From Candidatus Levyibacteriota bacterium (GTDB lineage Bacteria; Patescibacteriota; Microgenomatia; Levybacterales; UBA12049), in NCBI GenBank assembly GCA_027459745.1, contig DAIDHL010000005.1:646-64645 (forward strand): a DNA stretch of 64,000 bases. The letters are read 5' to 3'. Below, piece by piece: positions 3,379-39,912 of this stretch; the stretch's first letter is position 1, and every line of letters starts with the position of its first letter. The notes under the pieces are model-generated. The model saw only the letters and a program-made list of their open reading frames with translations, searched no databases and was not told the DNA's origin. The translations under genes and the position numbers were made by a program.

Positions 3379-5069
3379 AAGCTAATGAATATTATACCAG
3401 CAAAAAGAATAATTATTCCAGCTATAGATACGATATCAGACCACGCTTCTACAGATGTTTGGGCATAGAATGCCTCCAACCTGTGTAATCCAACAGGTAA
3501 GTAAACAATTAACCCATTAGCTGCTGGAATATAGGAGATATTCTTGCTATCAATATAGACCTTCCAGTTGGAAAAAGGAGCTATATGCAAGGTAATCGGT
3601 TGTGTAGTTGCAGACTCTATAATTGCTTCAATCGAAGTAGTAGTCTGTTTATAATTTTTTAAAAGAATCTGCCCTTTTGCACTGATAGGATGGTACGCTA
3701 AAGCTTCTTTACTAGAGGAGGGAATTTTTATAATCTTAGGTAAATACTCATAAGAGACTAAAGACGACTGCCACAGCAAATAAGATTCATTTATATAATT
3801 CTGGTCTGTAAAATTATAGTATGTCTGAGGAATAAACAGTTTAGGGTATAAAATTCCTCCTAATAATATAACTACAACAATATATAAGTAACCTACCTTT
3901 AATTTCCAAAAACGCTTATGTAATATTTTCTCAAGGATAAATACTGCCGATCCTCCGATTAAGCTGGAAAAAAATGATGCTAAGATTAAGAATCTCCAAG
4001 GAAATTGAAAAAATTTCATAAAGGGTAACAAATTCCACAACCACTCTGACCAGGAAAGAGTCATAAATAGAGAAAACAGCAATCCTAGAAACAATGCAAT
4101 AAATATGTTGGTATATTTTTTAAATTCTATTTTTTTCCAAAGTATAACTATGAAAAATACAAAAGTTATAACTGATAAAAATAAATGTAATTTACCTACC
4201 CTGAAAGAAAGACCATCAACACATCCGGGTATTGATCCTCCATAACCCCAAGGACTATCCCAAAGCTGTGATAAACAAGCATATTGGGTATGGTAGTCTG
4301 AGCCTCCTTGGGTTACAGAATTCACATTTGTAAGGTTCATTTCTGTAAGAGATGGTAACCAGTAAAATGCTGAGATCAAGAGTGAACAAACTATCGTCAA
4401 AATAAAATAATAAATCATTTTACGGTTGTGGTTATAAAGACTACGAATAATAAATACTAATGACAACAAAAAAATAAACGGAGTAGCCATCAGTGCGGTG
4501 AGATTATGAGTCAAAATTAAAGCTGTATAAAACACTGAACTTAAAACTACATATCTCCATTGCTTAGTTTGACAAAGTTTAATTAAGAAAAAAATTATAA
4601 AAGGTATAAGTGCGTAAGCAAAAGCTTCAGCCATATCACCTCTCACATAAATGTCTAGTGCATGATATGGAGCGTAAACATATAATAACCCCGCTGTTAA
4701 ACCTGCTAAATTATTAAAAAGCTTACTACCTAATAGATACATTCCCAATCCTGACATTAAAACACCTAAAATTATGACGAACTTAACCGAAAAGATAGCA
4801 GACATTCCTCCTAGATATAAAATGCTAGAAAGATAATATATTAAAGGAGAATAAAAATTAAAAAAGGGATATCCATAACCAAAACCTAAATCTTGAGACC
4901 ATCTTACAGGGAACATGCCATCGCTTAAAGCCTTACTCATCTCATATACTCTTTGTACCTGACCATTATCGTGAATTGGGAAAAAACCTTGATGAAATAA
5001 AGGAAGTATCGCCCCAAGCGATAAAATAAACAAGAATAAGATAGTGTAAATTCTAACTTTTACATTCAT
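3375..5069 (-). CDS. Polytopic membrane protein, GT-C-fold glycosyltransferase-like (YfhO/PMT-like); tandem paralog of 5066..6721
   Basis: 564 aa, more than 10 TM helices. N-terminal loop 'GFFPIHDNGQ...WSQDLGFGYGYPFFNFYSPLIYY' parallels the acidic-motif plus aromatic-loop architecture of GT-C enzymes. 4-bp coupled to neighbours. Confidence 0.5.
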   Translation of the reverse strand: MNVKVRIYTILFLFILSLGAILPLFHQGFFPIHDNGQVQRVYEMSKALSDGMFPVRWSQDLGFGYGYPFFNFYSPLIYYLSSILYLGGMSAIFSVKFVIILGVLMSGLGMYLLGSKLFNNLAGLTAGLLYVYAPYHALDIYVRGDMAEAFAYALIPFIIFFLIKLCQTKQWRYVVLSSVFYTALILTHNLTALMATPFIFLLSLVFIIRSLYNHNRKMIYYFILTIVCSLLISAFYWLPSLTEMNLTNVNSVTQGGSDYHTQYACLSQLWDSPWGYGGSIPGCVDGLSFRVGKLHLFLSVITFVFFIVILWKKIEFKKYTNIFIALFLGLLFSLFMTLSWSEWLWNLLPFMKFFQFPWRFLILASFFSSLIGGSAVFILEKILHKRFWKLKVGYLYIVVVILLGGILYPKLFIPQTYYNFTDQNYINESYLLWQSSLVSYEYLPKIIKIPSSSKEALAYHPISAKGQILLKNYKQTTTSIEAIIESATTQPITLHIAPFSNWKVYIDSKNISYIPAANGLIVYLPVGLHRLEAFYAQTSVEAWSDIVSIAGIIILFAGIIFISL

Positions 5070-6721
5070 TTGAAGAACAATTTTTTAATAAAATAAAAAA
5101 TAATGAAAATAAACGAAATCAAACTAATAAGATCTGATATTAAGCGTAATGAGGTTTCTGTAAAAGTACCACTAACCGTATGAATACCTGCAGGTATATT
5201 AATATCCATTAAACCTTTAGGATTACTATATGAGATCTTAGTAGTATTACCGTCAATTTTTGCTACCCATCCAGGATAATAAATAATATTAACTTGCAAC
5301 ATAAAAGGTTTTGTTGAATTGGTATTAACAACAAATCTTCGTGAGTTATAAAATTCATCTGTTAAAAAGACTTTGTTATTTAATGCTGTAAACTTAACCA
5401 CTGGCCTCTGCAATGGTTTTTCTTTTACCCATAGAGGCATATATTCACTGGAAGATGTGGTAGTTGCATCGTTGGTTAAATAAAAATTATCACCTCTGTT
5501 AACATAACTCTGGGGATGAGCATAGGGAATTGTATAAATAATAGTAATTAACCCTAAAATTATATATGCAGGGTAAATTTTTTTAAGAGTAAATAATTTA
5601 GATGAAAGTATAGCGATCAAAAATCCTACAACACCCAGTAATGTCCAGGGATAATTAATTTCTTTAATCAATGGCGTATGCACCCAAATTGCGTTTGTAA
5701 AAGGAAATAGTAATAAGCAATATAAAACCAGAAGTATTGAAGCTATGATTAAGAATTTATCGCTCAACGAGTTTCGTAGAAAATGATTCCGGAATAGAGT
5801 TGTTGCAACAATTAAAAGTAATACTATCAATACTTGAGGTAAGCCTAGCTGAAAAGTAAACTGGTCTGCACTAGGAGGTATACCATATCCCCAAGAAGGT
5901 ATAAATAATTGCCACCAGTGAGCATAATTAATTACCCTGTCAGCAATCGGCGTTACAGCTAATGCAATAAGATTTTTTTCCGACAAAGCAGGAACCCAGA
6001 AGAATGCGGACAATCCAAAACCTAGAACTAAAGTAAAGAAATAAAACAGTGATAATTTTATTCTGTCTTTAACACTTAATAAAATAGAGCAACTCATAAA
6101 CAATAAGATTATAGGTAAAAACTCTACCGCCATTATGTTGTGTGTCGTAATTAAACTGGCAATAAAAATAGCTGCAAAAATTACATAATATAGTCGTCTA
6201 GATTTATGTATTTTAAGAAGAAAATAGATAATAAAAGGGAATAAGGCAAAGGACAGAGATTCACCTATTGATCCCCTTACAAACAAATCTACCATTCGAT
6301 AAGGATAGTACACGTATACAATTGCACTAAAAACACCCGACAATCTACTCTGCCACATTTCTTTTGCCAGCAGGTACATTCCCCACAAAGATAGCGGAAC
6401 TGTAATCGCGAATATCAACTTGATTGAATCAACAAAACTAATTTTAAATAAATGGATGAAAAAACCAAGATAATAAGGTAGCGGATAAGCGAATTCAAAC
6501 AGTGGATATCCATAACCAAAATTCAAGTTAGCACTATATCTGGCTGGGAATTGCAAATCTTTCAATTCTCTATACATGTCTGTAAGTCTCACCACAGCCC
6601 ATTCCCCATCATGAGTCGGGAAATACCCAGCATGGAAATAAGGTAATATCAAAGGAATACTTAACAATATAAATAATATTCCCGTCCAAATTTGAATATG
6701 TTGTGTAAATATTCTTTTCAT
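5066..6721 (-). CDS. Polytopic membrane protein, GT-C-fold glycosyltransferase-like; paralog of 3375..5069
   Basis: 551 aa. 'GYFPTHDGEW...NLNFGYGYPLFEFAYPLPYY' closely parallels the N-terminal loop of the neighbouring gene. Many TM helices. Confidence 0.5.
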   Translation of the reverse strand: MKRIFTQHIQIWTGILFILLSIPLILPYFHAGYFPTHDGEWAVVRLTDMYRELKDLQFPARYSANLNFGYGYPLFEFAYPLPYYLGFFIHLFKISFVDSIKLIFAITVPLSLWGMYLLAKEMWQSRLSGVFSAIVYVYYPYRMVDLFVRGSIGESLSFALFPFIIYFLLKIHKSRRLYYVIFAAIFIASLITTHNIMAVEFLPIILLFMSCSILLSVKDRIKLSLFYFFTLVLGFGLSAFFWVPALSEKNLIALAVTPIADRVINYAHWWQLFIPSWGYGIPPSADQFTFQLGLPQVLIVLLLIVATTLFRNHFLRNSLSDKFLIIASILLVLYCLLLFPFTNAIWVHTPLIKEINYPWTLLGVVGFLIAILSSKLFTLKKIYPAYIILGLITIIYTIPYAHPQSYVNRGDNFYLTNDATTTSSSEYMPLWVKEKPLQRPVVKFTALNNKVFLTDEFYNSRRFVVNTNSTKPFMLQVNIIYYPGWVAKIDGNTTKISYSNPKGLMDINIPAGIHTVSGTFTETSLRLISDLISLISFIFIIFYFIKKLFFK

Positions 6722-34636: not shown

Positions 34637-36958
34637 TTGGAAAGAGGGGCAAAACTAGTGAAAATTCACAAAAAACAGCATGCAAATGTTAAAAAACGGC
34701 AGTGGGGCACAGAAGAAAACATAACCTCACTCCCAATTTTACATGACAAACCATCATTACTAAAAATCGCACTGAGTAGAGTAGCTATTGTACTTACTGT
34801 GGTCTTTTGGTTGATGTATATCGTTTCCACAATCTTAAGACAATTTTTAGATGGTTCAGGCAATTATGAATTTACTATGGAAGCCTTCAGTTACGCCCTA
34901 ATTGTAACTTTTCTCACATTTTCCGCCCTGATGTATTTGATTGCCCGTCAAGGAGCCTTTCAGCGATTCAGCAAGCATGTGCGTGTACCCCGTTCTATAC
35001 TTGATAAGCACTTTACGACAAATCAACCAACAATTACCGTCTTAATCCCCTCTTATGCAGAAGAACTTGCAGTGATTAGAAAAACTATCCTCTCGGCTAT
35101 GTTACAAGAGTATCCACATATTCGCATAGTGCTACTTATGGATGACAATCCATACCCAAAAGATGCCGTAAATTTAAAACGAGTTAATCAAACTCGTGAG
35201 CTTATTAAAGATTTACAAATATTGCTGGACAAGCCATATAAACACGTCTCACATGCATTAGCCACATTTGAAAAGTTTAAAGCTAAAAATAAGATAATTT
35301 CTTTAAGTAATATTAAGGATTTAGCTAACGAATACGAATGGGCAGCCAACTGGTTAAATAAGTTTGCCGATGAAGAGTTAATTGAAGATCATGTTGATAA
35401 ATTTTTCACTGAACAAGTACTGCGGGAATTGGCGAAAGATCTACAATTAGTTTCTCATGCACTTCAATTGTCCCTCAAAGACCAAGCAAAACTTTCATCT
35501 GAGCGTATACATCAGCTTTATCGCAGATTAGTATGGATCTTTGGTGCTGAACTGAAGATTTTCGAACGTAAAAAATATGCTTCTTTATCTCATGAAGCAA
35601 ATAAGGCTATGAATCTTAATGCTTATATCGGATTAATGGGTAAAACGTACCAGTGCGAAGAAACAGTAGATGGCACGATCCTCATACCGACTGAGCAGAA
35701 AAACCCTAATAATATTATAGTTCCGGATAGCGATTTTATACTTACACTTGATGCTGATTCTATACTGCTTCGCGACTATTGTTTACGTCTGGTATATTTT
35801 TTACAACAACCTGACAATGCCCATGTAGCTGTAACCCAAACTCCCTATTCTTCTTTCAGGGGAGCATACTCACGTATTGAAAGATTGTCAGGGGCAACCA
35901 CTGATTTACAACATATTCTGCATCAGGGCATGAGTCAATATGGAGCAACTTTTTGGGTAGGAGCAAACGCTGTCATCAGAAAACGTGCACTGGAAGATAT
36001 TGCTATCCGGGAATGGGTAGGGGGTTTTGAAGTGAAACGCTTTATTCAAGATCGTACCGTCATAGAAGATACAGAATCGAGTATTGACCTGGCAAGTCAT
36101 GGTTGGACACTAGTTAATTATCCAGAAAGATTGAGTTATAGCGCGACACCACCTGATTTTGGTGCACTAGTTGTTCAGCGTCGACGGTGGGCCAATGGAG
36201 GATTATTAATTCTTCCCAAACTTTGGTCACAACTCACCGTGCGCAAAAATCGTAATGAGATTATTTCACGCACTGAAATAATGCTAAGAATAAACTATAT
36301 GGCCTCTATATGTTGGGCAAGCTTTGGACTAATCTTTCTACTTGCATTTCCTTATGACGGTCGCTTACTTAGTCCCTTAGTGTTGTTAGCTGCACTTCCC
36401 TACTTTATCGCCATGGCTTATGATTTAAAATATTGCGGATATAACTATAGCGATGTGATTAGAATTTATGGTTTTAATCTTATTCTCCTACCAGTAAATT
36501 TGGCCGGGGTGTTAAAATCGATTGAACAAGCCTTAACAGGCAAAAAAATTCCCTTCGCACGCACACCCAAGGTAAAAAATAGAACCTCAGTCCCTTTGCT
36601 CTATCTGGTTGTTCCTTTATTTATTGTCGCATTTTCTCTTTTTACACTCTGGCGAAATATAGAAAGCGCGAATATAGGTAATGCCCTGTTTGCAGGCTTT
36701 AATGCAATAGTGGCTACCTGGGCGATAGTGGCATATATAGGTATTATTAATTTATTGGCAGATTTATGGAGAGGTTTAACCAGTTGGTTATATGTGGAAC
36801 ACAAGTCCAAGACCCTAATCCCGCCCCCTACCCAAACTTCAGGAGTAGACTGGAAGGTTGTGCTTTATCATGGCGAAGACAAAGGTACAGTGCCTCATAC
36901 ATTTCTAAGAGAAATTGCAGACGAATCTAATTACCCTAAAGGAGGCTTTATTCGATGA
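34637..36958 (+). CDS. Processive family-2 beta-glycosyltransferase (cellulose/chitin-synthase superfamily) with N- and C-terminal membrane domains
   Basis: 773 aa. N-terminal TM helices, DxD 'LTLDADSIL', 'VIEDTESSIDLASHGWTLVNY' (TED/EDR-like motif) and 'QRRRWANGG' (QxxRW, identical to the chitin-synthase QRRRW signature). About 6 C-terminal TM helices. No obvious PilZ domain. Likely real start is GTG 34658 with RBS 'AGAGGGG' upstream. Confidence 0.8.
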   Translation: MERGAKLVKIHKKQHANVKKRQWGTEENITSLPILHDKPSLLKIALSRVAIVLTVVFWLMYIVSTILRQFLDGSGNYEFTMEAFSYALIVTFLTFSALMYLIARQGAFQRFSKHVRVPRSILDKHFTTNQPTITVLIPSYAEELAVIRKTILSAMLQEYPHIRIVLLMDDNPYPKDAVNLKRVNQTRELIKDLQILLDKPYKHVSHALATFEKFKAKNKIISLSNIKDLANEYEWAANWLNKFADEELIEDHVDKFFTEQVLRELAKDLQLVSHALQLSLKDQAKLSSERIHQLYRRLVWIFGAELKIFERKKYASLSHEANKAMNLNAYIGLMGKTYQCEETVDGTILIPTEQKNPNNIIVPDSDFILTLDADSILLRDYCLRLVYFLQQPDNAHVAVTQTPYSSFRGAYSRIERLSGATTDLQHILHQGMSQYGATFWVGANAVIRKRALEDIAIREWVGGFEVKRFIQDRTVIEDTESSIDLASHGWTLVNYPERLSYSATPPDFGALVVQRRRWANGGLLILPKLWSQLTVRKNRNEIISRTEIMLRINYMASICWASFGLIFLLAFPYDGRLLSPLVLLAALPYFIAMAYDLKYCGYNYSDVIRIYGFNLILLPVNLAGVLKSIEQALTGKKIPFARTPKVKNRTSVPLLYLVVPLFIVAFSLFTLWRNIESANIGNALFAGFNAIVATWAIVAYIGIINLLADLWRGLTSWLYVEHKSKTLIPPPTQTSGVDWKVVLYHGEDKGTVPHTFLREIADESNYPKGGFIR

Positions 36959-38535
36959 GTAGTACACAAAGAAAATTATCCTGGTGGAGAGTGTGCTTGA
37001 TGCTATTTATGTTGTCAGCAATCACGGCAGGGGGGATATTTATGTGGATAGAATGGAAACAAGCTAAAGCTGTAGTAAAACCACAGGCATGGTTTGCCCC
37101 TTATGTGGATGTGACCGCAACTCCTTTATTTTCCTTTGAACAAATGGGCAGCTCATCAACTCCAAATGTAGTTTTAGCATTTATAGTCGCTTCATCTTCT
37201 AATCCATGTATACCAACATGGGGAAATGCTTATACACTAAATCAGGCTAGCATAGCATTGGATCTGGACAGAAGAATTGCCCGTTTGAGACAACAAGGCG
37301 GCAATGTAGCTATCTCCTTTGGTGGACAAGCCAATAATGAATTATCCTTCAGTTGCACTGATACCAAGCAATTATTCAATGCTTACCAAGCAGTTATTCA
37401 ACGCTACAAAATCGACACCATCGACCTGGATATCGAAGGAAGTGATCTAAGCAACATAGCAGCCTTAGATCGTCGTGCAGAAGTTATTGCTAAACTACAA
37501 AAAAGTATACGCTCCCAAAAGAAAAATCTAGCTGTCTGGTTAACTTTACCGGTATCCCCGCAAGGATTAACTCTAGACGGAGCTAATGTGGTGGACAAAT
37601 TTTTAGCTGCAGGTGTAGATATCGCTGGAGTAAATGCTATGACTATGGATTATGGCAATAGCAGAAGTCCCCACCAAACTATGGCTCAAGCTTCTGAGCA
37701 AGCCTTGGTGGAAACACATCGTCAGCTTGGTATTTTATATAAACAAGCTAAAATAAATCTTAACAGTACCACCTTATGGAGCAAAATTGGCGCCACGGTT
37801 ATGATTGGGCAAAACGATATTATAAATGACATTTTTACACTTGATGATGCGCAAAAGCTAAATTCTTTTGCACGTTCGGAGGGAATGAGTAGAATATCAA
37901 TGTGGTCAGCCAACCGGGATATTCAATGCGGAGTAAATTATGTGGATACACAAATTGTTTCTGATTCATGTAGTGGAGTGAAACAAAATAAACAACAATT
38001 TGCTAGCTTACTTAGTTATAAGTTAACTGGTGATTTCACTCATAATTCTCAGGTCATAACTATTCAAGATGCCGGAGCCAATGTGCAAAAACCTGATGAC
38101 CCTGGTAAAAGTCCTTATCAAATTTGGAACTCAACTTCCGTCTATCTACAAGGAACTAAAGTTGTCTGGCATAGGAATGTTTATCAAGCCAAATGGTGGA
38201 CGCAAGGTGATTTACCGGACAATCCGGTTTTAGAATCTTGGCAAACTCCCTGGCAACTTATTGGCCCTGTCTTACCTGGGGAAAAACCAATTCCTCAACC
38301 TACCTTACCCCCAGGTACATATCCTACCTGGTCTGGTACACAAATATATGATGTGGGAATGAGAGTGCTTTTTAACGGTGTTCCTTATCAGGCAAAATGG
38401 TGGAACCAAGGAGATAGTCCTGCCGCTTCAAGTGCCAATCAAGACAGCTCACCTTGGTTAGCATTGACTCAAAGTCAAGTTAACACTCTGATTCAAACTA
38501 TCAATGCTACTAAATCAGCCACCGTTAAGAAATAG
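36955..38535 (+). CDS. Membrane-anchored GH18-like glycoside hydrolase (chitinase-like) with two C-terminal CBM5/12 (ChtBD3) chitin-binding domains
   Basis: 526 aa. N-terminal TM anchor. 'ISFGGQ' and 'KIDTIDLDIEGSD' (DxxDxDxE GH18 catalytic motif with one substitution). Two repeats 'Y..G..V...NVYQAKWWTQGDLP' and 'VPYQAKWWNQGDSP' match CBM5/12. 4-bp ATGA overlap with the synthase. Confidence 0.75.
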   Translation: MSSTQRKLSWWRVCLMLFMLSAITAGGIFMWIEWKQAKAVVKPQAWFAPYVDVTATPLFSFEQMGSSSTPNVVLAFIVASSSNPCIPTWGNAYTLNQASIALDLDRRIARLRQQGGNVAISFGGQANNELSFSCTDTKQLFNAYQAVIQRYKIDTIDLDIEGSDLSNIAALDRRAEVIAKLQKSIRSQKKNLAVWLTLPVSPQGLTLDGANVVDKFLAAGVDIAGVNAMTMDYGNSRSPHQTMAQASEQALVETHRQLGILYKQAKINLNSTTLWSKIGATVMIGQNDIINDIFTLDDAQKLNSFARSEGMSRISMWSANRDIQCGVNYVDTQIVSDSCSGVKQNKQQFASLLSYKLTGDFTHNSQVITIQDAGANVQKPDDPGKSPYQIWNSTSVYLQGTKVVWHRNVYQAKWWTQGDLPDNPVLESWQTPWQLIGPVLPGEKPIPQPTLPPGTYPTWSGTQIYDVGMRVLFNGVPYQAKWWNQGDSPAASSANQDSSPWLALTQSQVNTLIQTINATKSATVKK

Positions 38536-38541
38536 AGGCTA

Positions 38542-38724
38542 TTACTTCATCAACCACAAAAATTTAACCAAGATGGCCATTAATATAAATCCATTTAAAA
38601 ATAATGAGATCAGTATCAATCCCAAACCCAAACCAATTGGCGAATTCCAACTATGCCAAGAATAATCACTTATAGCTTGCATAGCTGCGATGTGTCCTAA
38701 ATGTTTACTTTCGATTTTATCCAT
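38542..38724 (-). CDS. Small hypothetical membrane protein (60 aa)
   Basis: ORF with one hydrophobic helix. No other support. Confidence 0.25.
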   Translation of the reverse strand: MDKIESKHLGHIAAMQAISDYSWHSWNSPIGLGLGLILISLFLNGFILMAILVKFLWLMK

Positions 38725-38769
38725 AATTTATATTTCACCCCCTATCCATAAACTCTGAATTCTCTAATC

Positions 38770-39279
38770 TTATATGTCCAGATATTCAACCGGAGTTTCA
38801 TATTGCTTTGCATATTCTAAAATCGAGGAGTACAACTCTTGAGGAATTTTACCTTTTAACTCTTCAGGAGATTTACCTACCAACAATTCACTTTTTTGGG
38901 AGTTAACTAGATAATCCCCACTTTCTTTCCATTCCTTTTTATTTGTAAGCAAACTTGCTTTGCAAATAGTTCCCAACCATACAGCCCAATTTTCTTTTTG
39001 TGTACGATAGATATTAGCTTTTAAAAACCAAATTTTATCATCGCTAAACCCACTCCATTTACCGATACGAGAACCAATAAAACGCTGTTCACGTTCAGCT
39101 CCGTCTACGCCAACCTTGAGACCAATTTCCTCCATGTCTTTTTGTTTATCCTCCTGACGGGCAATGAATTCACGCAGAGCACGCACAATAACTGAGGAAA
39201 GAGCCTCACCGGCTATAGTTTTAGCCTGCTCGAAGAGTGACTCATCCTTTTCACTTACATAAATAGTCTTATTTGCCAT
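38770..39279 (-). CDS. EXLDI-family protein with ribbon-helix-helix-like N-terminus
   Basis: 169 aa. N-terminus 'KTIYVSEKDESLFEQAKTIAGEALSSVIVRALREFIAR' has an RHH (beta-strand plus two helices) pattern. C-terminus ends '...PVEYLDI', matching the EXLDI motif that names that family. Preceded by a consensus promoter and palindrome. Confidence 0.5.
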   Translation of the reverse strand: MANKTIYVSEKDESLFEQAKTIAGEALSSVIVRALREFIARQEDKQKDMEEIGLKVGVDGAEREQRFIGSRIGKWSGFSDDKIWFLKANIYRTQKENWAVWLGTICKASLLTNKKEWKESGDYLVNSQKSELLVGKSPEELKGKIPQELYSSILEYAKQYETPVEYLDI

Positions 39280-39315
39280 ATACGTATATTATACATATAT
39301 GTATAATGTTGTCAA
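39280..39315 (-). promoter_or_regulatory. Consensus sigma70 promoter (TTGACA-N16-TATAAT) overlapping an 18-bp perfect palindrome; TATAAT ends 8 nt before the ATG (leaderless or short leader)
   Basis: Minus strand reads 'TTGACA acattatacatatatg TATAAT atacgtat ATG'. Palindrome 'TTATACATATATGTATAA' (39289-39306) spans the spacer and -10. Confidence 0.6.
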
Positions 39316-39486
39316 GATATTAATAAGACAAGAGTAATAGCTTCGTCTTGAGTATGTCTTGCTAAAAGAGTGTAATAAATCGTATAAATACGATTGCCAC
39401 ATAACAACTCTTTTTTTCGCCTTATCTAAAAGCAGTGGCAAACACTATGGTAATCTAATTAGTCTGAGTGATTAAATATGAGAGCA

Positions 39487-39912
39487 CTAAGAGGTCTGCT
39501 TATCTGCTTTAAAAATCCATTGTCTGCCAAATTTGTCATAGAACTGTCCATAAGTGCCAAATGGCATCTCATGTAAATCTTGAAACCTGCTCTTTTCTGC
39601 TCCAACGGCTAACTTGTCAAAAATTTCTTTTAACTCATCGTAAGCTTTGCCTATGATAAAAATCGCAAATGTATTTCCAGAGACGGGTTCAAAATCAGGA
39701 GAAGCCATCCAGTCAGTGGCTGATATCTCTATTGCTCCACTTTTTAGATGGGCATTGATAATTCTACTCCATTTTTCTTGAGGAAAGGAACTTTTCATGG
39801 GAGTATCACCTAACTTTGTGAGACTCAAAACTCCTCCCAGACACTCATGGTAAAATGTCATAGCTTCCGCACAGTTACCATCAAATAGTAAAAAGGGTGT
39901 ACAGTACAACAT
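39487..39912 (-). CDS. VOC-family protein (PhnB-like / 3-demethylubiquinone-9 3-methyltransferase-like glyoxalase fold)
   Basis: 141 aa. 'PFLLFDGNCAEAMTFY', 'INAHLKSGAIEISATD' and 'FGRQWIFK' are typical of PhnB-like VOC proteins. Confidence 0.7.
   Translation of the reverse strand: MLYCTPFLLFDGNCAEAMTFYHECLGGVLSLTKLGDTPMKSSFPQEKWSRIINAHLKSGAIEISATDWMASPDFEPVSGNTFAIFIIGKAYDELKEIFDKLAVGAEKSRFQDLHEMPFGTYGQFYDKFGRQWIFKADKQTS

Follow-up and report, generated by a model that had tools for sequence, protein, structure and literature searches.

The closest described relatives of the regulator considered here are the repressors of the CopG/Arc/MetJ type (RHH_1 in Pfam, clan Met_repress), in which a ribbon-helix-helix (RHH) N-terminus of about 45 residues, arranged beta-alpha-alpha with a G-x-x-x-S turn before helix 2, goes together with a palindromic or repeated operator laid over the repressor's own -10 hexamer, the classic layout of autorepression. 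The same layout is met in a 64,000-nucleotide stretch (hereafter the window) of a Candidatus Levyibacteriota bacterium (Patescibacteriota; assembly GCA_027459745.1, contig DAIDHL010000005.1, positions 646 to 64,645), where the promoter of a gene of the EXLDI family (NCBIfam TIGR04342) is covered by palindromes. The EXLDI protein is predicted to share with these repressors the N-terminal arrangement and the turn, and its profile bears a suggestive similarity to that of CopG; it differs from them in falling below the gathering scores of the Pfam RHH models, in carrying a C-terminal domain of 120 residues that is absent from CopG and Arc, and in having an operator whose sequence is conserved across phyla.

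NikR offers a second comparison, as it too is a one-component repressor with an N-terminal RHH domain fused to a larger C-terminal regulatory domain, a division seen in the structural model of the EXLDI protein, and its palindromic site lies at the promoter of a transport operon, which is paralleled by the ABC-2 operons of the more distant EXLDI genes (clade B, below). However, the EXLDI domain has neither sequence nor fold similarity to NikR_C or ACT-like domains and no evident metal-binding motif, and whereas NikR regulates the nik ABC importer, the clade B partner is an ABC-2 transporter of the exporter type. The RHH antitoxins (VapB, CcdA, ParD, RelB, FitA) likewise possess an RHH N-terminus and are encoded by the first gene of an autoregulated two-gene cassette, and EXLDI proteins give weak Pfam matches to VapB, CcdA and Rv0623-like models. 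In contrast to these antitoxins, the EXLDI protein is without a recognisable toxin partner, has a large folded C-terminus and is highly conserved, is not found on phages or true plasmids, and may be partnered by an ABC transporter instead. The window protein is a full member of TIGR04342, a model which is a name only and which omits the conserved, putatively DNA-binding N-terminus.

We propose that the locus is an autonomous, negatively autoregulated operon of two genes, in which the EXLDI protein acts as a one-component transcription factor and represses its own promoter, and we put the probability of this reading at roughly 0.75. On this view the protein is a probable RHH autorepressor whose sensor or effector domain is uncharacterised; its putative operator is conserved to an unusual degree, and its partners in the operon are newly identified (Table 1). 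The anatomy of promoter and operator, its conservation across phyla and the operon partners are established by sequence or comparison, and they suggest that the protein binds DNA and that it represses rather than activates.

Table 1. Coordinates of the features of the EXLDI locus, numbered from the first position of the window
Feature	Position	Strand	Basis or remark
-35 hexamer, TTGACA	39310..39315	-	promoter scan
-10 hexamer, TATAAT, made by the right arm of the operator	39288..39293	-	ends 8 nt before the ATG
Putative operator site 1, TATACAT-AT-ATGTATA, 16-bp inverted repeat over spacer and -10	39290..39305	.	palindrome search, motif comparison
Putative operator site 2, perfect 10-bp palindrome TATACGTATA, from -10 to start point, takes in the A of the ATG	39279..39288	.	
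EXLDI-family gene, 169 aa, ends in EYLDI	38770..39279	-	open reading frame and TIGR04342
RHH-like, putatively DNA-binding domain, residues 1-47	39139..39279	-	model, profile comparison
EXLDI domain, residues 49-169	38773..39135	-	TIGR04342
Shine-Dalgarno-like GGGGGTGA before the second cistron	38735..38742	-	relatives have (A)GGAGGTGA right behind the EXLDI stop
Second cistron, small tail-anchored membrane protein of 60 aa, with W-H-S-W-N-S-P-I-G-L ahead of a hydrophobic helix	38542..38724	-	

The promoter has the form TTGACA-N16-TATAAT and agrees with the consensus at 12 of 12 positions; a scan of the window found it to be the sole 12/12 match to TTGACA-N16-18-TATAAT. An earlier reading of this DNA, made from the letters alone (the sequence-only reading), had described a perfect consensus promoter with its -10 close before the ATG, and every one of these features was recovered on the minus strand, where ATACGTAT (8 nt) separates the -10 from the ATG at 39279. 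The start codon can be regarded as fixed, because the alignments of more than 200 homologues start at residue 1 and show a nearly invariant N-terminus, M-P/A-N-K-T-I-Y-V. No GGAG, GAGG or AGGA is present in the 20 nt that precede this ATG. A perfect palindrome does cover the spacer and the -10, as had been noticed, but its true length is 20 bp rather than 18 (ATTATACATA/TATGTATAAT, 39288-39307), and it encloses operator site 1; the adjoining palindrome which the same reading had pointed out is there as site 2.

Comparison was based on 81 loci, consisting of the window and 80 others (L001-L080) from a scan of one genome per species. Clade A (L001-L025) comprises close relatives at 53-78% identity and clade B (L026-L080) distant ones at 32-38% identity, from Nocardia, Glycomyces, Streptosporangium, Paractinoplanes and Chloroflexota. 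The operator was scored as TATACRT-NN-AYGTATA (TATACRTNNAYGTATA), with no more than two mismatches, within 130 nt upstream of the gene. The motif was found over the promoter in 78 of the 81 loci, in Patescibacteria, Nocardia, Glycomyces, Streptosporangium and Chloroflexota, with no copy elsewhere in the 656,559 nt of those loci. Its position is constant, between the -35 and +1, with the right arm supplying the -10 as TATAAT, TATAGT or TATACT. The promoter follows the pattern TTGACA-n-TATACaTATAtGTATAaTATACgTATATG in clade A, where the -35 is TTGACA or TTGACT, and CTTGCcaTGTAtGTATACgTCTACGTATAGTtgG.tCATG in Nocardia, where the -35 is TTGCCA-like. The consensus of site 2, aTATACgTATATG, is kept in 22 clade A loci even though it would be untranscribed or non-coding, and the invariant core of the operator is accompanied by an invariant beta-strand in the EXLDI proteins. 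These comparisons support the view that the palindrome behaves as an operator conserved across phyla, and the small autorepressed regulator of the sequence-only reading gains in credibility, since the putative operator is conserved on the gene's own promoter. The element would act as DNA, because it is untranscribed in the leaderless loci described below; an Rfam scan of positions 38300-39700 returned no RNA family.

It could be argued that the palindrome is merely AT-rich promoter sequence and that the protein is not its DNA-binding regulator. The window has a guanine-plus-cytosine (GC) content of 31-44%, TA-rich palindromes and -10-like hexamers are frequent in it, and a 12/12 promoter turned up in 12% of shuffles. 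However, the motif is placed in the same way in actinomycete DNA of 62-72% GC, and an AT-only 16-mer that sits on the promoters of orthologues in such DNA and nowhere else in 656 kb excludes a compositional accident. The 8 nt from the -10 to the ATG are conserved as well, although promoter function needs no such conservation, and we consider that this explanation can hardly be maintained. Within the window the motif has a single exact copy, at this site, so the regulator appears to be local; a wider regulon with a second operator was considered and rejected, the remaining matches carrying two mismatches and being at chance level.

The phylogenetic span that can safely be given for the family is Patescibacteria, Chloroflexota and Actinomycetota. 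A number of clade A contigs come from metagenome-assembled genomes (MAGs) labelled Gammaproteobacteria, Acidobacteriota or Puia (L003, L009-L014, L017, L020 and L025), with a GC content of 33-42% that resembles that of contigs from the candidate phyla radiation (CPR). The clade A loci with Acidobacteriota, Bacteroidota or Gammaproteobacteria labels all fall at 30-43% GC and are probably mis-binned CPR contigs. As their GC suggests mis-binning, these labels are unfit for claiming a wide phyletic spread, and the possibility that the close clade is truly multi-phylum was rejected as unsafe.

The distance between promoter and start codon divides the loci. In 53 of them (the window, 19 others of clade A and 33 from Nocardia) only 6-10 nt separate the end of the -10 from the ATG, with no usable Shine-Dalgarno sequence (SD), whereas in 26 loci promoter and operator are farther upstream, at 17-54 nt, and an SD (GGAGG, GAGG or AAGG) is present in all but one. 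This reciprocal pattern fits genuine leaderless and leadered variants of one gene. The window gene has the leaderless geometry, defined by a spacing of about 6-10 nt from the -10 to the start codon and by the lack of an SD, and its messenger RNA (mRNA) would therefore probably be leaderless. In this genome a leaderless start seems to be the rule: among the 46 non-overlapping open reading frames of at least 120 aa in the window, GGAG, GAGG or AGGA was found upstream of only five, and a TATAAT-like hexamer ends 6-10 nt before the ATG in 15, with a sharp peak at 6 nt. Other starts of leaderless appearance in the window are those at 3378-, 14687+, 18263+, 20408+, 24439+, 28571-, 28986+, 32970-, 33028+ and 39912- (signs give the strand). 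The sequence-only reading had called the EXLDI gene apparently leaderless; this stands as regards its geometry without an SD, mirrored by leader-plus-SD versions elsewhere, but not as a peculiarity of the gene, since such starts are common in this genome. A literature search on leaderless transcripts and Patescibacteria yielded nothing pertinent.

With regard to the protein, the TIGR04342 model matches over its full length (positions 1-124 of 124) with 60.4 bits against a curated cut-off of 32 (E 2.1e-16), which bears out the family membership first read from the C-terminal EYLDI. Across 33 close and 90 diverse homologues, residues E165, L167, D168 and I169 show little or no variation. At least 218 homologues are present in the protein database, nearly all of exactly 169 aa and 57-78% identical, and an exhaustive HMMER search of 1.84 billion cluster representatives gave 272 clusters at E <=0.001. 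The cluster alignments run from residue 1 (M-P-N-K-T-I-Y-V) to the terminal E-x-L-D-I, which makes the N-terminal domain an integral part of the family. This domain, beginning MPNKTIYV, is the family's most conserved part and lies outside every Pfam and NCBIfam model, TIGR04342 itself starting at residue 49.

An AlphaFold2 model of the monomer, built from an alignment of 90 sequences, reached a mean predicted local distance difference test score (pLDDT) of 91.9 and a predicted template modelling score of 0.78. In it residues 1-9 are extended and are followed by helices at 10-23 and 27-46, with a turn at G24...S28 and pLDDT values of 88-96 in the N-terminal blocks; this strand, helix and helix within about 45 residues match the RHH layout of a monomer. 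Comparison of the N-terminal profile with CopG by hhalign, using a CopG sequence checked against PDB 1B01/2CPG, gave a probability of 81% and E 1.2e-5 over 40 columns. A CopG-family RHH structure, PDB 9kkd, matched with E 0.021, the match spanning helix 2 only. A Pfam scan of the 90 members gave 23 sub-threshold matches, of which one member may have several, and all were to families of the RHH clan (CcdA 9, PSK_trans_fac 5, RHH_1 4 with a best E of 0.0016, VapB 4 and Arc 1). Searched by sequence against solved structures, the whole protein gave no match and the N-terminus gave only marginal ones, along with spurious hits to 'TIYV' repeats in designed propellers. The RHH-like beginning proposed by the sequence-only reading agrees with the topology of the model and with the CopG-like profile. 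That residues 1-47 work like an RHH domain is well supported, and they probably adopt the RHH fold.

The remainder of the protein is predicted to form a separate domain, residues 50-161 making a five-stranded antiparallel sheet with long hairpins and with helices packed on it, at pLDDT 86-98 except for a loop block at 121-130 (75). The last eight residues have no regular structure in the model. No solved structural relative was recognised for this C-terminal EXLDI domain.

Directly 3' of the EXLDI gene, in the window and in L001-L020, lies a small open reading frame of 46-63 aa whose product combines a polar helix at the N-terminus with a hydrophobic one at the C-terminus and carries the invariant motif W-x-x-W-x-S-P-x-G-L. 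In 20 relatives a canonical (A)GGAGGTGA stands ahead of this reading frame, right behind the EXLDI stop. The 60-aa window protein has no match in Pfam, NCBIfam or PADLOC. A separate scan of metagenomes used this small membrane protein as the query (loci including L088-L160), and each full-length match was preceded by an EXLDI match where the contig was long enough. The EXLDI gene is complete in 18 of these loci, with the small gene directly downstream and, in 17 of the 18, the operator motif just upstream; three further loci show only an incomplete EXLDI match or one truncated where the contig ends, and one locus breaks off at the small gene. Beyond the two genes the flanks are otherwise not conserved among clade A loci, the window sharing flanking genes with L001, a Levyibacteriota MAG, and the pair can therefore be regarded as an autonomous two-gene cassette. 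Its GC equals that of the flanks, and a horizontally acquired island was rejected on this ground.

Clade B has other partners. A DrrA-like ABC ATPase gene follows within about 100-400 nt in 50 of the 55 loci and an ABC-2 permease gene in at least 32, and the output of the regulator would accordingly differ, being a co-transcribed small membrane protein in the close relatives and a DrrAB-like ABC-2 exporter in Actinomycetota and Chloroflexota. Where the sequence-only reading had left the output unnamed, candidate operon partners can now be given. Neither partner is adjacent in L021-L024, L040 and L065. The Chloroflexota locus L040 has tandem EXLDI paralogues (4001-4564 and 4711-5202) and then a 438-aa protein, which is common to L040 and L065 and there replaces the ABC transporter.

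Weaker similarity links the small protein to an unannotated family of 45-60-aa tail-anchored proteins encoded apart from EXLDI genes in GC-rich genomes (L091-L160, for example L109:1489-1572, L132:1483-1569 and L160:1489-1587), with the motif W-[HY]-G-W-G-S-P-V-G-L-G and a transmembrane helix. Their neighbours include regulators of the PadR (12 loci) and MarR (10) types, flavin adenine dinucleotide-dependent (FAD) monooxygenases (15) and MFS transporters (9). The common theme may be a function that is located at the membrane, controlled by a regulator and concerned with xenobiotics or envelope stress; a role of the EXLDI output in envelope stress or efflux is speculative.

The sequence-only reading had thought an antitoxin-like module possible, and these partners bear on that idea. 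In a toxin-antitoxin-like module the RHH-EXLDI protein would be an antitoxin that regulates itself, and its small hydrophobic neighbour would be a toxin that damages membranes. We regard this as very unlikely, since neither protein belongs to a toxin or defence family in Pfam, NCBIfam or PADLOC, there is no phage match, and the sole match in a plasmid collection is an unannotated 2.66-Mb replicon of Nocardia farcinica. What the cassette has in common with such modules is the order of its genes, RHH first and small partner second, a palindromic operator on the promoter, flanking genes that differ among clade A loci, and the weak VapB and CcdA matches. Set against this, the identity of 57-78% and the fixed length are unlike those of fast-evolving antitoxins, and the C-terminal part is in the model a folded domain of 120 aa and not a short toxin-wrapping tail. 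Distant members are paired with an ABC transporter, relatives of the small protein adjoin PadR/MarR regulators, MFS pumps and monooxygenases, and the cassette does not depart from its flanks in GC.

The main question about the input is whether the EXLDI domain senses a ligand or is titrated by its partner. In the latter case it would serve the co-encoded membrane protein (the small tail-anchored protein or the ABC-2 exporter) as a cytoplasmic accessory or docking subunit, and only the excess would return to the operator, so that the operon would set its own stoichiometry or report the state of the transporter, as in MalK-MalT or Mlc-PtsG. Such titration is possible, if unlikely. The extreme C-terminal E-x-L-D-I, invariant and without regular secondary structure in the model, fits a docking peptide, no ligand-binding fold was recognised in the EXLDI domain, and a membrane or transport partner that always immediately follows the gene would suit this idea too, although L021-L024, L040 and L065 have neither partner adjacent. 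Moreover, a single docking surface is unlikely to serve both clades, since their partners are unrelated whereas the EXLDI tail and domain are conserved between them.

In the autorepressed operon that we favour, an RHH dimer, or a dimer of dimers, would read TATACAT-NN-ATGTATA and TATAC-GTATA through its beta-ribbon (N-K-T-I-Y-V), a mode of binding to which the inverted repeats conserved on the promoter lend indirect support. Since the spacer, the -10 and the start point of the EXLDI promoter are all made of these repeats, RNA polymerase would be excluded while the protein is bound. The mRNA would begin at or beside the A of the ATG, so that the repressor would be translated from a leaderless message, and the 60-aa membrane protein would be translated from its own SD. 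The EXLDI domain would be the input or effector module, and contact with a ligand or with the membrane partner, the nature of the signal being speculative, would free the operator and so switch on production of the membrane protein or, in Actinomycetota and Chloroflexota, of the DrrAB-like ABC-2 exporter.

Several points weigh against this proposal and it should be considered with these in mind. A 12/12 promoter has an expectation of 0.14 per window, and at least one was seen in 12 of 100 shuffles; because of this frequency it is insignificant in isolation, and it is its placement at the start of the gene that counts. L024, L049 and L075 have no motif match at two mismatches or fewer. Repression is argued from the position of the operator over the -10 by analogy only, and the 'output' is a composite, since the operon partner differs between the clades. 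The beta-ribbon is not visible in the monomer model. No Pfam RHH model reached its gathering score with the window protein or with any of the 90 members, so that formal membership of the clan Met_repress does not apply, and the best Pfam match of the window protein is to VapB_antitoxin (residues 12-45), at 12 bits against 23.4. A literature search on EXLDI and TIGR04342 found no paper on the family.

To our knowledge, almost no transcription factor with a known site has been described from the uncultured Patescibacteria, and we believe it uncommon for a transcription factor and its operator to be kept together across such distant phyla. A family that has so far been a name only, TIGR04342, gains a first testable function; an operator sequence and target genes can now be predicted for it, and the conserved pair can serve as a marker when regulons are reconstructed. 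As some homologues belong to culturable Nocardia (among them an orthologue of Nocardia farcinica at NZ_LN868939.1:885334-885831), Glycomyces and Streptosporangium, the regulator can be studied in these and the result transferred to Patescibacteria. The analysis also brings out two uncharacterised objects, namely a family of small membrane proteins that lacks annotation and a C-terminal domain for which no structural relative has been solved. Were the proposal wrong, the cost would be small, the gene being in any case a conserved hypothetical.

A broader view may be put forward tentatively, and it is rather doubtful that all of it holds: that EXLDI proteins are an unrecognised class of cross-phylum one-component regulators, combining RHH with a sensor fold absent from the PDB; that their cognate 16-bp operator is essentially unchanged across Patescibacteria, Chloroflexota and Actinomycetota; that the invariant E-x-L-D-I tail serves as the switch, being either a docking peptide or a degron; and that the regulon is a dedicated envelope-protection or efflux device, made of a new family of tail-anchored W-x-x-W-x-S-P-x-G-L micro-proteins in CPR and of DrrAB-like ABC-2 exporters elsewhere. 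The locus would gain in interest if the EXLDI domain did prove to be a new sensor fold and, across phyla, to govern functions of the envelope or of efflux.

Finally, some genes in the neighbourhood may be noted. The gene immediately upstream of the cassette on the same strand, at 39487-39912(-), encodes a PhnB/VOC-like protein (PF06983, 24.5 bits), and such a gene lies within a few kb of the cassette in four loci (the window, L001:2756-3175, L003:8089-8499 and L010:4826-5242). A TrwB/VirD4-like type IV coupling ATPase gene is convergent to the cassette in 13 clade A loci from metagenomes (L136:1683-3131(-), L088-L090, L097, L100, L103, L105, L108, L110, L112, L113 and L118), and is not beside the window cassette. 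There the convergent genes are a pair, a 773-aa GT2 protein (Glyco_trans_2_3, processive-synthase-like; 34637-36958(+)), which overlaps the next gene by 4 nt, and a 526-aa GH18 protein with two CBM5/12 modules (36955-38535(+)), the stop codon of which is 6 nt from that of the small open reading frame.

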